A DNA stretch of 64,000 bases from Podarcis cretensis (taxonomy: Eukaryota), in contig OX638154.1 of the NCBI GenBank assembly GCA_951804945.1, positions 52,266,001 through 52,330,000 of the forward strand, given 5' to 3'. Below, piece after piece: positions 4,154 to 63,579 of this stretch. The notes under the pieces were generated by a model. The model worked only from the letters and a program-made list of their open reading frames with translations. It did not search any database and was not told the DNA's origin. The position numbers were made by a program, and so were the translations under genes. Numbering within the stretch: the first letter of the stretch is position 1; each line of letters starts with the position of its first letter.

Positions 4154-4500
4154 GGCTGTGTACACACTATACCTCTAAAATACATTTGAAGCACATTTAT
4201 GCCTTCAATGAATTCTGGGCACTGTAGTTTGCTAAAGGGTGCTGGGAAACTGTAACTCTGTGAGTGGTAGACTACAGTGTACAGTGCCCATAATTATTTT
4301 GAAGAAAATAATGTGCTTTAAAGGCAGTGCTCTCCCCCCCAAAAAAATAATGTTTAGGGGTACTCTCATTTTCCTACTCATATTGAAATACTGCCCCTCA
4401 ATGAAGCCAAACTTAGATTCACAAAATGTTTAGGGGGTATGCGTACCCCTGCGTACCCCCAGAAAAAAGCACTGTTTAAAGGTATAATGTGAATACAACC
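4154..4500. mobile_element. Old PIF/Harbinger-like MITE interrupted by a hAT MITE
   Basis: Imperfect TIRs GGCTGTGTACACACTATACC / GGTATAATGTGAATACAACC flanked by TAA on both sides; a related right end is visible at about 1-92. Confidence 0.6.
4325..4474. mobile_element. Non-autonomous hAT element (150 bp)
   Basis: TIR CAGTGCT...AGCACTG; perfect 8-bp TSD TTTAAAGG at 4317-4324 and 4475-4482. Confidence 0.85.
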
Positions 4501-5597: not shown

Positions 5598-5775
5598 CGG
5601 AGCTTTTTTTTCTGGGGGTACGCAGGGGTACGCATACCCCTAAACATTTTGTGAATCTTCATACTTTTGTCCATTTACTGTACTGTATTTATTTTTCCTG
5701 ATTTGAACTATAATGGTGATTTTCTTGAGTCAAAATGAGAGTACCCCTAAACATTTTTGTAGAAAAAAAGCACTT
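5598..5775. mobile_element. Non-autonomous hAT element related to 4325-4474, in inverted orientation
   Basis: Shares GGGGGTACGCAGGGGTACGCATACCCC and GAGAGTACCCCTAAACAT blocks with the reverse complement of the 4325 copy; 7/8 TSD CAGATACC / CAGATATC. Confidence 0.75.
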
Positions 5776-27840: not shown

Positions 27841-28207
27841 AAAGGTAAAGGTAAAGGTACCCCTGCCCGTACGGGCCAGTCTTGACAGACTCTGGGGTTG
27901 TGCGCCCATCTCACTTAAGAGGCCAGGGGCCAGCGCTGTCCGGAGACACTTCCGGGTCACGTGGCCAGCGTGACATCGCTGCTCTGGCGAGCCAGAGCCG
28001 CACACGGAAACGCCGTTTACCTTCCCGCTGGTAAGCGGTCCCTATTTATCTACTTGCACCCGGAGGTGCTTTCGAACTGCTAGGTTGGCAGGCGCTGGGA
28101 CCGAGCAGCGGGAGCGCACCCCGCCGCAGGGATTCGAACCGCCGACCTTTCGATCGGCAAGCCCTAGGCGCTGAGGCTTTAACCCACAGCGCCACCTGCG
28201 TCCCTGC
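27841..28207 (-). mobile_element. Sauria SINE, full length
   Basis: Nearly identical to the 1388 copy; B box GGTTCGAATCC; TSD GCCAAGTGGAAT at 27829-27840 and 28208-28219. Confidence 0.93.
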
Positions 28208-35555: not shown

Positions 35556-35798
35556 ATCTAGACTGTCCTCACATCCCTGGCTTGACACAGCAGTGAAGGC
35601 TTGGCTGGCAGTGAGTCTGATGCAGGCAAAACTTCCCAGTTGTGCTACATCTGAGTTAATAAAGGACTTGACTTTTTAATGCTTTCTGCTTTAGCCAGTT
35701 TGGACTGAACCAAGACCTACAGAGGAGCATTGGAGCAGTCTGCAGCTGGCAAGGGACAGAGTTCCCTTGCTTAACTTTCTTCCTTTCGCCTCCTCCAG

Positions 35799-36082
35799 AC
35801 CTGAGTCCGATGCCAACAGAGGAGATTGTCCAGATGTTCAACGAGTTGCGCAGTGATCTGGTGCTGCTGTATGAGCTCAAGCAAGCATTTGCAAACTGTG
35901 AATATGAGCTGCAGATGTTGCGGCACCGCTATGAGGCATTGGCCAAAGCGGGTAGCACAGGGCCCAGCACAGATGGTGGCTCACATGCTGATGGACAGTC
36001 AGGCTTGTGCACTGAAGAGAGCAAGGGTGACGCAAAGGAGCAGATCATTGATGTGGTGGGGGCTCCCCTCACACCCAATTCG
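35799..36082 (+). CDS. DMAP1: DMAP1 coding exon 9 (DLSPMPTEEIVQMFNELRSDLVLLYELKQ...IIDVVGAPLTPNS)
   Basis: tcctccAG at 35797-35798, GTGAGT at 36083; 284 nt. Confidence 0.96.
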
Positions 36083-36154
36083 GTGAGTAGATATTGATGT
36101 TGGCATGCCCTTGCACCCCTTTAGGCCTGCTTGAAAAAATAACACTGCAAACCA

Positions 36155-51229: not shown

Positions 51230-51607
51230 GTAAAGGTAAAGGTAAAGGTAAAGGTACCCCTGCCCGTACGGGCCAGTCTTGCCAGACTCTGGGGTTGTGC
51301 GCCCATCTCACTTAAGAGGCCAGGGGCCAGCGCTGTCCGGAGACACTTCCGGGTCACGTGGCCAGCGTGACATCGCTGCTCTGGCCAGAGCCAGAGCCAG
51401 AGCCGCACACGGAAACGCCGTTTACCTTCCCGCTAGTAAGCGGTCCCTATTTATCTACTTGCACCCAGGGGTGCTTTCGAACTGCTAGGTTGGCAGGCGC
51501 TGGGACCGAACGACGGGAGCGCACCCCGCCGCAGGGATTCGAACCGCCGACCTTTCGATCGGCAAGCCCTAGGCGCTGAGGCTTTTACCCACAGCGCCAC
51601 CTGCGTC
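51230..51607 (-). mobile_element. Sauria SINE, near full length
   Basis: Same family; TSD ATGGTGATAACTA at 51217-51229 and 51608-51620; local (CCAGAG)n expansion. Confidence 0.93.
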
Positions 51608-59128: not shown

Positions 59129-61799
59129 ACACATAATATGGCCATAGAAACAGGCGAGGAACCTGAGTCATAAAACAGGGCATCTTAGAAGCCATTCCTG
59201 TGAAGCTGATTTTCACGTAGACCTGTCACTTTTAATCACAAACCTCTTTGAGGGAAATGAACTGCTTGCTACATGGAACAGCCACACTGTAGTACTTTTT
59301 AAATAGTCACTACTGTGTGTGACAGCTTTTTTGCATGAATCAGACCAAATTACACCACACTTAGCTCTCAAAGCCTCAGCCACCAACTAGATGCAGCCGC
59401 TGCATGTGTATTATCTATGCAAGTTCTTTATGTGTTTACACACACAACAGAAATCTGTGGCTATGAGTTCCACAGTAGAATAGCATGTTTAGTTGAAATA
59501 GCACTTGCTGAATTAAAAAGATGAAGTTAATTCCTTCCAAGCCCACAAGACAGTCGCAATGCCACCAGAATACAGAATGACAACAACGAACCAGAAGTGA
59601 GAATTAAATTGGGGTGTTCTCTCTCTCCTCCCTCATACCTTCAATATGGCCCCAGTGGGAAGGTCCCTGGGACTGCCGGCAGGTATCTCAGATAGTGCTG
59701 ACAGCAGATGGACAGAACATTAAGAATAACTTACCTCATTATCTGCAATTACATTACTGCCACACACCTCATTTCTTCGCAAAGAAAAGAAAATTAGTTT
59801 TATATTGACTTCATCCTAGCACTTTTCCCAACCGGCCACTGGATAAACCACTCATTGTTTGAAGGCGGGGATTTGGGACATAGAGTGGGGGGTGGGCTTT
59901 GATGCTTCAATGAATAACAATTTATCCTAACCTGTTGCCTAAAGGTGATACTCCCCTCATACACAGGAGTCCATGTTTTTGTGTGGAAGGATAGGTTTAG
60001 GAATGAGACACAAGTTACTAGGGCTTGATCTTGGATTATTAGCCCCTGAAATGAGAAACTTCAATTCACAAATCACCCGTATGGTAGTCAATGGCATTCA
60101 AAAGGCCCAGCTTGGAGGTGAGAAGTTCTCAGGCCATATAGGGATCTGTGTCTGCTATACACAACATGCTTCATTTCCATTTCCTGTCTGGCCCCTGCCA
60201 TGGGATGTCACCTTTCCAACTTACATAAAGACCCCAAACAATGGCCTGCCCCCAAGGGCCAGCATGCCTGAGAACCGAAATGGGGAAAGCGTGCAGGGAA
60301 GGGGCAGCAGGTTACAATGGAGACATTTCCCCCTGTGTCGGCATCCTGCAACCTCTCCATCCATTAGCCGTAATTGCTGGCAGCAGAATAACAGCATTTT
60401 TAAAAGCAGAGCTTTGCTCTGCTGGGCAGAAAGAAGGGGGAACATGCTCTCTGCTTCAAGGTGCAAATGCCAGGCTCCCATCTGTCAGGAGGAAGGGCAG
60501 ACGGAGCCACCCGAGGGCCCGTCACATATCCAATTTGCTCGAGAACATGGGATGGTCCTGCATGCAAAGGGAACACAAGGAATCCTTGAGCAGGTAGAAA
60601 TCATGCCCAGCTCTGAGCTAAACAAGTTGCCCCCTGCTGAGAGATGAAGAGGCTGACAGTGATTCACATCTTCATTTACAGCCTCAGAAAAAGGCTAGAC
60701 CATCCTAATGGCTCACCACTTTTATCCCTGCAAATATATACTATATCTGTATCTCGCCTGCATCCAACACAATGAGCCAAATTTAGGTTTTAAGGCACCA
60801 TCCAAGCCACTCTAAATACAGGTTAGTGGTGGCTTGCCAGAATCCTAATCTGTGCTGAATTCAGCCTGTGGTAGCATATGCTATACTACAGGCTTGGGAT
60901 GGATAGCAGTGTACAGTACAAAAGTTAGAAGTAGAAAGTCATTTCCAGTGGTTACTATGAGCTGAAATGTTTGGTGTAAATCATCCCTGAGGCTCAGTGA
61001 GGAAGACACTTGGCCTGCTAAATTTCTCACATATTGTGGGTGGTGCTGAACTCAGTTGTGGGTGGTGCCATCACTTTTCAATGTCTCCCTCCCCACTTTG
61101 TGGGTGTGGAGGGGGGCCTGGCCCTTGCCAGAGGTCTGACTTCATCACTTGTAAATTCCTTTGAATCTAGGCTGAGGGTTTCCCAACTGGCCTGTGCCAA
61201 CCATGCCAAAGGTCTCTTCACTGAGGACAAAGAAAGGCAACTTTTTTGGAGAATGGCCAAAGTATTGTTTGGATTGCCATTTAGTGGCCTCGGTTAACCT
61301 GGCATGCAATGAGGTGGAAGGCTGGTGAGGCTCATATCCAGTTGCCATTCAAAACAGATGTATAAATCCAGCCATCACATTGCCTGAATGATCTACTGTT
61401 CTATGTAGTTGTTTCATGTTTATCCTGCTGCTCAAGGAGCTCAGAAGCATTTTGGCCTCCTGAGGTAAACTGGGCTAAGAAAGGGATTTGCTACCATATC
61501 TACCATACTTTCAGGAAAATATTGTTCCCAGCTAGGAGTTCACAATCTTGTTCACCATTTTTGCCATACTGACATACAGTCAGGCTCTAGTAAAAAAGAG
61601 AAGCCCAAGTCTCTGCTGAAGGGAGAAGGAAGAGATATGTTGACTAGTCTCTGCCTTGCTAGGGATTCCAAGTACTGTATAGAGGCAAAACAAGTACAGA
61701 TGGTGACCATTTTAGGCACGATCACTGATGTGTGGGTCCTTTTGGACCTGGAAGAAGTCACAATGGGGCAAAACAAGGCACAAAATGGTTGTTGCCTGT

Positions 61800-62558
61800 T
61801 GTCAGGGACTCAGCGGGAGCGCAGGGAGGAGAGGAGATGGAAAGCGAGGGGGAGCAATCCGAGGGCAGCGTAGGAGAATATGACAGCAGCCCGATAGATT
61901 CCATGAGCCTCTCCAGCGAATCGGAAGATTCACAGAAGGGGGCGCCGATGGGCAGGGCAAGGGGCGACCCAAGGGGGACATCCCAGAAGCAAGGGGCCAG
62001 CGGGGACTCCCAGAGCAGCAGTTGCAAATCAGGACCAGCTTCCCCACCAGAGCGTAGTGGGGGGGAGGAGTCCCAGGTGTCAGAGCCCACATATGCACCA
62101 CCAGCGAGAGAAGATGAGTCAGGGTGGACCACGCCTCCATCGGAGAGCGAGTTAACGGTTAAGAGGAAAGTTGCAGGCTGGGCGCGCGCGCCAAGTTCAA
62201 AGGTACAGGCGAGCGGCACAGAAGGTAGCCCGGATAGGGAACCAGGTCCTAAAGCCCGCCGGAAGGAGGGGCAAGAATCGTCAGGGTCAGCGTCAGAGGA
62301 GTCCAGGAAGGATGAGACCCTAGCGGGCAGGAGGGCCCAGAGGAGAAAGGAATTTAGGAAGAGGTGGAGCAAAGCGAGAGTCTTAAACTGGTGTGGAGGG
62401 GGAGGAGACTCAGACAGGACTTCGCCGGTCTAAGGTCGGGACGTAGAGCTGCACGCTGCGGCTTTGAAATGGAGACTGAATCTCAATAAAGACTTTTGTA
62501 CATAACTACAGCCTAGCGTTGGTCCTCTGTGAGCTGGGACCTGGAGGCAGCTCTGACA
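61800..62558 (+). mobile_element. Solo LTR (759 bp) of an LTR retrotransposon/ERV
   Basis: TG...CA ends with inverted repeat TGTCAG / CTGACA; perfect 5-bp TSD CCTGT at 61795-61799 and 62559-62563; AATAAA at 62485-62490; GC/CpG-rich against the flanks. Confidence 0.88.
61837..62433 (+). CDS. Putative 198-aa Ser/Glu/Gly-rich protein with basic C-terminus, encoded inside the solo LTR
   Basis: Strong Kozak context GAGGAGATGG, uninterrupted frame to TAA, AATAAA about 50 nt downstream; no homology recognised and expression unknown. Confidence 0.4.
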   Translation: MESEGEQSEGSVGEYDSSPIDSMSLSSESEDSQKGAPMGRARGDPRGTSQKQGASGDSQSSSCKSGPASPPERSGGEESQVSEPTYAPPAREDESGWTTPPSESELTVKRKVAGWARAPSSKVQASGTEGSPDREPGPKARRKEGQESSGSASEESRKDETLAGRRAQRRKEFRKRWSKARVLNWCGGGGDSDRTSPV

Positions 62559-63579
62559 CCTGTAAACTCATTTCCACTTCCCTTGTCTAGCTCTGCGATG
62601 AAGCAGGGGCAGAGGGATGTAGAGGCACATGGGCTTGTTTGCACCTGCCATGCATTTTGAACACCCAGCAACTGCAGAGGCAAAGCAAGCCTTTTGTCAC
62701 CTCCAGTTCCAAGATGGAGAGGGCAGGAAGTTATTTTCACACTGTGCAAAATGTTCCACCACCACTCCAGCTCCGGACTTCCAGCTGGAGAAGGAAGCAG
62801 GGGAATGCTCTCGGATTTGTGCTATGTTTCAGGGGTCCAGTATGCGGTCAAGGACCAGGCCCCACCCGCTGAAGGATGATGATGATACTCTTGGCACCAA
62901 CAAATTTTGGGTTGGCCACCAAGGCAATAAATATTTACTGGCCTCTAATCCCAACTCTAGTACCTGAGATGCCAGAGATGGAAACTGATACCTTATACAT
63001 GCAAAAAGAATTGTCGCAAAGCAATGATTCCTCCCATGCTTCTCTTAATGACAATTATGATTATGTTATGAAAACAGTCACTGTTGGCTTGATCCCTAGG
63101 ATACACCTGTGCATAGATGAGTGTCCAACAGCCAAGGCATTTGTTTTCTCCAGCATTTCCTTCTTTCCTGGCCAGGCCTGCTATACCCTAGGAGCTGCAT
63201 TCCTCATCAGCCTCCTTTCTCCCTGGCCACCATCCAAATAAAAAAAAGAACATCCCATGACATCATAACCCCTTCCACTCGCTCAACATTTATATTTGTT
63301 AAACTTTTTAGCAAACTTTCAGATTTTTGTGTGCATTTGAAGTTCTCAGGATTTACTCAACATCTTGCACCCAGTAGTCCAATCAAGCTGGGCCTATTTA
63401 TTAATCACCTCCCAAGAAGCATCCCAAAATGACTGAACAATAAAAACACCAACAGCAAAAAAACATATAAAAACAAGTTATTTATTGCACTTTTAACCTG
63501 CTCTTCCATCAAAAAGGCTCCCAGAGCAGCTTACTTATCAAGAAGAAAGTCCCTGCCCTCAGGTTTATAATCTAAAGCA

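Follow-up and report, generated by a model that had tools for sequence, protein, structure and literature searches.

We find that the 198-aa open reading frame (ORF) in a solo long terminal repeat (LTR) of Podarcis cretensis is the end of a retrotransposon polyprotein. It corresponds to the last 198 of 210 LTR-encoded Pol residues, the C-terminal integrase tail of a young, self-priming Gypsy chromovirus. The LTR-coded frame is under purifying selection between subfamilies and between families. On balance, we consider it probable that this segment remains on the integrase as a disordered extension, aiding entry into the nucleus and steering insertion toward chromosome-end heterochromatin, with Gag-Pol made by a -1 frameshift. 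This explanation rests on the 1563-codon Pol frame, the purifying selection, the recurrence of the same design in three families and the biased distribution of copies.

The genome comprises 1.5 Gb, and the stretch of DNA analyzed (64,000 nucleotides, hereafter the window) is located in the middle part of chromosome C6. The solo LTR occupies positions 61800 to 62558 on the + strand, as do all features of the element given below (759 bp, TGTCAG...CTGACA), between 5-bp target-site duplications (TSDs) CCTGT at 61795 to 61799 and 62559 to 62563. From nucleotide 2 of the LTR onward, one frame is free of stops for 210 codons plus the stop (61801 to 62433); this stretch equals Pol residues 1354-1563 and spans the whole predicted U3. 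The ATG-initiated 198-aa ORF within it (61837 to 62433, TAA at 62431-62433) covers 79% of the LTR. Its ATG begins at LTR nucleotide 38 with G at both -3 and +4, and its Met is an internal Pol residue. Near its end lie an Arg/Lys/Trp cluster (62329-62379) and a hydrophobic-L-x-W motif, together a predicted nuclear-localization or nucleic-acid-binding segment (62329 to 62391). The AATAAA polyadenylation signal (62485 to 62490) is 51 nt beyond the ORF stop. A preliminary description of this DNA had reported the LTR boundaries and TSD, the ATG frame in strong Kozak context ending before AATAAA and the basic cluster, and all were reproduced exactly. It had also raised chance as a source of so long an ORF; an ATG ORF of at least 198 aa arose in only 15 of 3000 dinucleotide shuffles over six frames and in 3 of 3000 on the + strand. 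The ORF matched no Pfam family, and inspection by eye showed no PP1, HP1 or TRF docking motifs.

Other features share the window. An exon matching DMAP1 (PF05499, E 6e-23) lies at 35672-36097 (+), and the solo LTR is ~26 kb downstream on the same strand. A young repeat of ~330 bp that starts with AAAGGT repeats and resembles a Sauria SINE occurs at 1388-1687, 27841-28140 and 51238-51537 and has copies 99-100% identical genome-wide; it serves below as the SINE-like control. A perfect inverted repeat of ~50 bp (~4417-4468 and 5606-5657, arms 1.1 kb apart) is either the two termini of a non-autonomous DNA transposon or a short repeat present twice in opposite orientations.

We searched the genome with the window LTR, whose family is referred to as family 1 (the focal family). 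The DNA search gave at least 1334 candidates, of which 40 were scored and 30 fetched. These 30 copies are 99.7-100% identical to the window copy and comprise 8 solo LTRs with TSDs, 13 5' LTRs and 9 3' LTRs. The ORF is intact in all 30 young copies, which is no evidence on selection because the copies are so nearly identical. LTR pairs lie 5801 bp apart and delimit a 6560-bp element. Five of seven such full-length elements have identical LTRs, and the burst is therefore very recent. Element-containing units are amplified in tandem at C19 51.06-51.09 Mb and C1 141.207-141.220 Mb, and one solo LTR is nested within the pol of another copy (L114).

The full-length elements, which had been proposed as the means of classification, place the family among the Gypsy chromoviruses by reverse transcriptase (RT), integrase (IN), primer-binding site (PBS) and polypurine tract (PPT). 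Gag spans 377 codons from stop to stop and has Retrotrans_gag and Ty3_capsid domains and a CCHC knuckle. Pol, in the -1 frame relative to gag, contains protease (PR), RT, RNase H (RH), H2C2, rve and SH3_Tf2-1 in the order PR-RT-RH-IN-SH3. The PPT precedes the 3' LTR, and with the TG...CA LTRs and TSD completes a Ty3/Gypsy layout. Near the end of gag, a G-GGA-AAC heptamer is followed by a 10-bp stem (z -1.98), a combination that we take to be a putative -1 frameshift signal. We found no env in the full-length element, where Pol leaves no gap before the 3' LTR and continues into it. The Pol frame of 1563 codons continues past the integrase and through the PPT (as Gly/Glu), enters the 3' LTR for 210 codons and ends at the ORF stop; the 198-aa ORF is therefore the Pol/integrase tail. 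Among 150 scored ORF matches, 29 lie in a 1563-codon frame and 35 in frames of at least 1500 codons. Two Podarcis muralis UniRef proteins (P0001 and P0009) have the same C-terminal ending, and P0001 is 61% identical over the tail.

Two further families share this design, and in both Pol reads through the PPT. Family 3 has 86% core identity to family 1, a 784-bp LTR and 218 LTR codons. Family 2 is more distant (64% core identity), with a 404-435-bp LTR, 100-109 LTR codons and a Pol of 1351 codons; the dN/dS of its LTR-coded tail is 0.28-0.37. The basic cluster followed by hydrophobic-L-x-W is conserved across the tailed families and is the sole LTR-coded motif common to all of them. In a profile search, only P0124, P0125 and P0128 gave full-tail matches; P0128, an unnamed ENA protein, is a further member of the clade. 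The tailed proteins form one clade (SH-aLRT 100) in a quick tree of 32 proteins that included no named Sushi or Tf1 sequence; this clade joins Anolis and Naja elements (96) and then fish and tuatara elements (86). The tailed lizard Pols have 191-424 aa after the chromodomain Trp versus a median of 37 aa in 104 other chromovirus Pols, only 6 of which have at least 150 aa there. Family 2 (L106-L113) is young and dispersed, with an LTR of ~405 bp and two acidic FxGF motifs. Some Anolis Gypsy Pols (P0102, P0115, P0273 and P0275) are without a chromodomain and have a helix-acidic-FxGF stretch and an acidic tail.

The region between the integrase core and the LTR contains two further candidate interaction modules. 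The chromodomain of family 1 is degenerate, with a below-cut-off match to PF00385 in L072 (E=0.0014) and none in L031; that of family 2 matches PF00385 at E=4e-10. The predicted fold of the family 1 chromodomain nevertheless superimposes on HP1 with an rmsd of ~1 A over 47-48 residues and matches HP1/CDYL2 chromodomains at E 3e-3 to 4e-2, from a model built with chromodomain-bearing relatives. At what we take to be the HP1 positions, the aromatic cage residues are lost in families 1 and 3. A PDB sequence search with the chromodomain region and the FxGF stretches gave no match, and the ESM Atlas gave weak leads for the chromodomain (0.80-0.81). Behind the chromodomain, upstream of the PPT and outside the LTR, lies a predicted helix, an 8-9-residue acidic or Ser/Thr linker and FxGF. 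We found [FL]xGF after the GPY region in 18 of 120 proteins scanned; 17 of the 18 are from lizards and include Anolis elements without a chromodomain. According to the accessible parts of two reports, TND-interacting motifs (TIMs) consist of a helix, an 8-16-residue acidic or Ser/Thr linker and FxGF (PMC9987994, PMC8022399), and in one of them FxGF-type TIMs are described as binding H3K36me3 readers of active genes (PMC9987994). By its layout the lizard stretch is TIM-like and would resemble the LEDGF IBD-binding motif, placed just after the chromodomain and present twice in family 2. TIMs are known from host transcription proteins, and lentiviral integrases use the same pocket; here the putative motif is element-borne and the likeness is one of layout only. 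Since FxGF-type TIMs bind readers of active genes, the motif does not predict heterochromatin targeting.

We assessed where copies sit in the genome by counting clusters among the best-scoring matches listed. For the youngest variant, 19 of 108 listed clusters lie within 0.5 Mb of a contig end, versus 1.3% expected (14-fold enrichment). The corresponding count for mostly older copies is 19 of 79. As controls we used family 2, with 5 of 147 listed clusters near ends and 0 of 32 for those with long frames (young copies), and a young SINE-like repeat of ~300 bp, with 0 of 40 listed clusters near ends. The focal enrichment relative to the two controls has Fisher p values of 1.5e-4 and 0.002. About 80% of focal clusters, including the window copy, are far from chromosome ends. 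Among 20 near-end LTRs, 8 have a flank in an AT-rich satellite of ~490 bp. Ten of the 20 are solo LTRs, and each of these has a TSD of its own that differs from the others.

Of 38 chromosome-end samples, 10 contained the ~490-bp satellite, and no chromosome showed it at both of its ends. Over 14 chromosomes, 92 near-end clusters lie at the satellite end versus 26 at the other end, where the satellite end of C2 and C7 was assigned from the copies' own flanks and one of the underlying match lists spans C1-C6 only. Lacertid chromosomes are mostly acrocentric, and therefore the satellite end is likely the centromeric end. The satellite forms higher-order repeats at C1 141.14-141.37 Mb, C5 30-46 kb and C8 94.19-94.26 Mb and in the flanks of L122, and is a candidate pericentromeric repeat. 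A GC-rich tandem array with 46/92/138-bp periods lies closer to the telomere than the satellite on C13 and C1.

Family 3 has a different home. We obtained 728 LTR-end matches to this family. Many of its copies sit directly inside (TTAGGG)n, in either orientation, and the junction usually reads GTTAG or CTAAC. Among an initial 30 LTRs, 8 were in telomere arrays and 22 in ordinary DNA. Among 20 LTRs chosen from terminal and interstitial clusters, 16 were in telomere arrays and the flanks of the other 4 were unreadable. Family 3 stands beside telomere repeats at four of six extreme chromosome ends sampled. Examples (L191:66-5843, L180, L182, L190, L194-L201 and L228-L246) come from C1 28-73 kb, C1 141.60-141.63 Mb, C3 3-47 kb and C2 4.62-4.64 Mb. 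Family 3 looks like a telomere-preferring LTR retrotransposon in a vertebrate. An apparent family 1 signal at the extreme chromosome ends was rejected as mostly cross-matching family 3. Focal-type LTR ends that abut telomere repeats are rare (2 and 0 matches).

These observations suggest a working model for the tail. Transcription would start at the self-primer in the 5' LTR, so that U3 is present only at the 3' end of genomic RNA. Ribosomes would slip at G-GGA-AAC before the hairpin near the end of gag, giving Gag-Pol. The protease would then free an integrase composed of its chromodomain, the TIM-like motif, an acidic linker and the LTR-coded tail. The basic cluster may act as a nuclear localization signal (NLS), and the Ser/Thr-rich motifs may be phosphorylation-dependent docking sites for host proteins, as in the tails of Ty1 and Ty5 and the CR motif of plant CRM elements. 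By this analogy, the tail would direct insertion. Family 2 argues against such targeting, as its tail of 100-109 aa accompanies young copies that are not end-enriched; a tail alone therefore does not imply end targeting. The other main weakness of the model is that most focal copies, the window copy among them, are interstitial, and the family 3 LTRs found in ordinary DNA, the 50% tail identity between families 1 and 3 and the lack of a Pfam match also count against it. The chromodomain or the core could instead target, or weak selection in heterochromatin could retain copies.

The dispersal of family 2 favors the most credible alternative, which we nonetheless regard as unlikely. Here the tail would play no part in target choice and would be a terminal NLS or nucleic-acid-binding patch on a flexible linker, possibly cleaved, and the clustering at ends would be due to the degenerate chromodomain, or else to copies being retained and amplified locally where satellite and telomere DNA recombines little. 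Consistent with it, the tail is mostly low-complexity and has a dN/dS of 0.3-0.4 versus 0.03-0.25 in the enzyme domains, the chromodomain is strongly constrained (0.04-0.17) and differs between families, and some near-end copies are tandemly amplified (C1 and C19). However, the TSDs of the near-end solo LTRs described above all differ, enrichment at ends is already seen in copies 99% identical to the youngest variant but not in equally young controls, and families 1 and 3 share short tail motifs with each other and with the P. muralis proteins.

We examined the expression of the ORF through the priming of the element. Instead of matching a tRNA, the PBS is complementary to an 11-nt site in the element's own LTR. 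This site precedes the LTR end by 146-148 nt, or by 139 nt in one LTR with a deletion. Self-primer and PBS co-vary in four variant pairs, and 16 of 21 PBS sites match at 11 of 11 positions, the other 5 with one mismatch. In the window the self-primer is AGACAGGACTT (62412 to 62422). Self-priming from the mRNA 5' end is the mechanism given for Tf1/Sushi in the accessible parts of PMC4600332 and PMC6317226. The co-variation therefore predicts a transcription start, the U3/R border, at 62412, 22 nt before the ORF end. In families 2 and 3, the Pol stop likewise falls ~20 nt past their own self-primer (family 2: 22 nt after the primer start). A TATA-like TTAAA lies ~30 nt upstream of the predicted start within TCTTAAAC (62381 to 62388). 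It overlaps the V-L-N codons and appears to be a case of dual coding, and part of the L-x-W conservation may reflect TATA-box constraint. With the predicted start at its end, the ORF would belong to U3 and be translated only as the end of genomic RNA, and a solo LTR would not transcribe it. The earlier suggestion that each solo LTR leaves a ready ORF plus poly(A) cassette is thus contradicted by the predicted start, and the ORF of a solo LTR would be usable only by a host promoter reading in.

The preliminary description had also proposed a separate accessory protein of the nef or sag type. HIV nef and MMTV sag are separate U3 genes with their own start and spliced RNAs, in env-bearing retroviruses. 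The lizard ORF resembles them in being a coding sequence within U3, but the element is without env, its frame is fused to pol as the C-terminal 210 aa, and it has no conserved start of its own. A spliced or subgenomic RNA could still give such a protein besides Gag-Pol, with translation beginning at the LTR ATG or at a Met upstream of it, but we consider this very improbable. The strong Kozak context of the ATG speaks for it, as does a GTAAG that in families 1 and 3 comes right after the 5' LTR, together with a pyrimidine-rich tract that ends in CAG ~400 nt before the 3' LTR. Against it, no ATG is present at the aligned site in family 3, P0001 or P0002, where Met is replaced by Thr or Leu while the frame stays open. 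The GTAAG overlaps the PBS and is GCAAT at the same place in family 2, and the CAG is gone in 5 of 28 copies through changes with little or no effect on the protein. Unspliced sequence spans the donor-like site in contigs of runs X1 and X2, which are only guessed to be RNA. No joint of the LTR-end donor to the tail was among the 15 of 119 joints listed for contigs of runs X1-X3, again only guessed to be RNA and uninformative for the parts that they leave uncovered.

Selection on the Pol tail was evaluated in 20 further copies, chosen mostly for long open frames; most of them belong to a sister subfamily with 826-bp LTRs. The homologous stop is reached in 11 of the 20, and 9 are broken by private indels, stops or truncation. 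Within the frame, the subfamilies share indels of +3 and +63 nt, and a shared +1 falls immediately past the stop, in agreement with the frame preservation that the preliminary description had proposed as a check. Its second expectation, a dN/dS below 1 between subfamilies, also held. By the Nei-Gojobori method, the LTR-coded part has a dN/dS of 0.32-0.41 in 10 pairs of one focal copy with sister copies, which are not independent; all 95% intervals are below 1. The last 45 codons give 0.20-0.37. RT-RH gives 0.05-0.25 where enough codons aligned. The other two + frames of the LTR give 0.8-2.5. Between the tails of families 1 and 3, which are 50% identical, dN/dS is 0.30 (0.19-0.44) at a dS of 1.29. 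Between the two LTRs of single elements, pN/pS is 0.98 (7 synonymous and 23 non-synonymous changes, two elements with broken 5' frames dropped), as compared with the low values between subfamilies. The ORF of a solo LTR, a recombination remnant, is best explained as now drifting neutrally. Of the proposal for an LTR-encoded protein, the selected, low-complexity region with a basic cluster therefore stands and the separate gene does not. A further alternative, that purine-rich composition, U3 promoter or RNA constraint, or an antisense gene sharing wobble positions incidentally produced the open frame and the low dN/dS, is scarcely tenable and largely refuted already. In its favor, the LTR is 64% purine, 58 of 3000 shuffles contain a stop-free frame of at least 210 codons and the focal LTR has no stop in the antisense frame with shared third positions (dN/dS 0.35-0.6). 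Against it, changes at third codon positions are nearly twice as frequent as at first or second positions, the Pol frame persists at dS >1 and, of 9 LTRs picked for an open Pol frame, 6 have stops in the antisense frame.

We compared the element with known systems. The closest is the plant CRM group A, in which, according to the accessible part of PMC3059260, the CR motif is encoded where the polyprotein reaches into the 3' LTR. As far as the accessible parts of the CRM reports go (PMC3059260, PMC6317226), both are Gypsy chromoviruses with a polyprotein extending into the 3' LTR and a 5-bp TSD, both have an LTR-coded integrase end as the proposed targeting module and both have copies in satellite-rich chromatin. 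By the same sources, CRM group A has a tRNA-Met PBS and a single ORF, whereas the lizard element is self-priming with gag and pol in different frames; the CR motif replaces the chromodomain, whereas the lizard element keeps a chromodomain in the classical position with the LTR tail behind it. CRM elements live in plants, and the lizard element falls in a separate clade with a tail over all of the predicted U3 (100-230 aa). The likeness is probably convergence, and the lizard tail has no Pfam match. Our verdict is that the lizard element appears to work like CRM group A without being a member of it.

The lizard proteins depart from Tf1/Sushi chromoviruses in their long tail (191-424 aa) and in the cage residues presumably lost in families 1 and 3. 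They share with these elements the PR-RT-RH-IN-SH3-chromodomain order and a PBS complementary to their own LTR, as described in the accessible parts of PMC6317226 and PMC4600332. For the Ty1 and Ty5 tails, the accessible parts of PMC7459421 and PMC4700185 describe a Ty1 integrase-tail motif beside a basic NLS and a phosphorylation-dependent Ty5 motif aimed at telomeric heterochromatin. Such short motifs in a C-terminal tail serve as the working model for the lizard tail, although Ty1 and Ty5 are Copia elements whose tails are not LTR-coded, and the likeness is one of layout. A Ty5-like DSSP motif was considered and rejected, as it is not conserved in the sister families. In the literature that we searched, with Repbase and subscription papers outside its scope, we found no vertebrate precedent for Pol extending into the LTR; the plant CRM paper was the only relevant one. 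An Anolis chromodomain Gypsy element was reportedly the subject of a 2009 paper, which may describe a Pol-LTR overlap. The accessible portion of PMC3601003 does not refer to ORFs inside LTRs.

A design known from plant centromeric elements, with integrase running into the 3' LTR, has apparently re-arisen in a vertebrate and been extended, such that the whole predicted promoter region is coding and selected. Many solo LTRs mimic Kozak-started genes with poly(A) signals and may mislead annotation. The three young families, with their different tails and homes, offer a natural experiment on targeting versus survival of repeats at centromeres and telomeres, which the accessible part of PMC4600332 names as an open question. 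More speculatively, and with considerable doubt, lacertid self-priming chromoviruses might have turned the whole of U3 into a fast-evolving targeting tail that assigns family-specific homes (pericentromeric satellite, (TTAGGG)n or genome-wide), while a stretch imitating the host TND-interacting motif would act as a second tether. If true, vertebrates would have both an equivalent of the plant centromeric retrotransposons and an LTR element that seeks telomeres.
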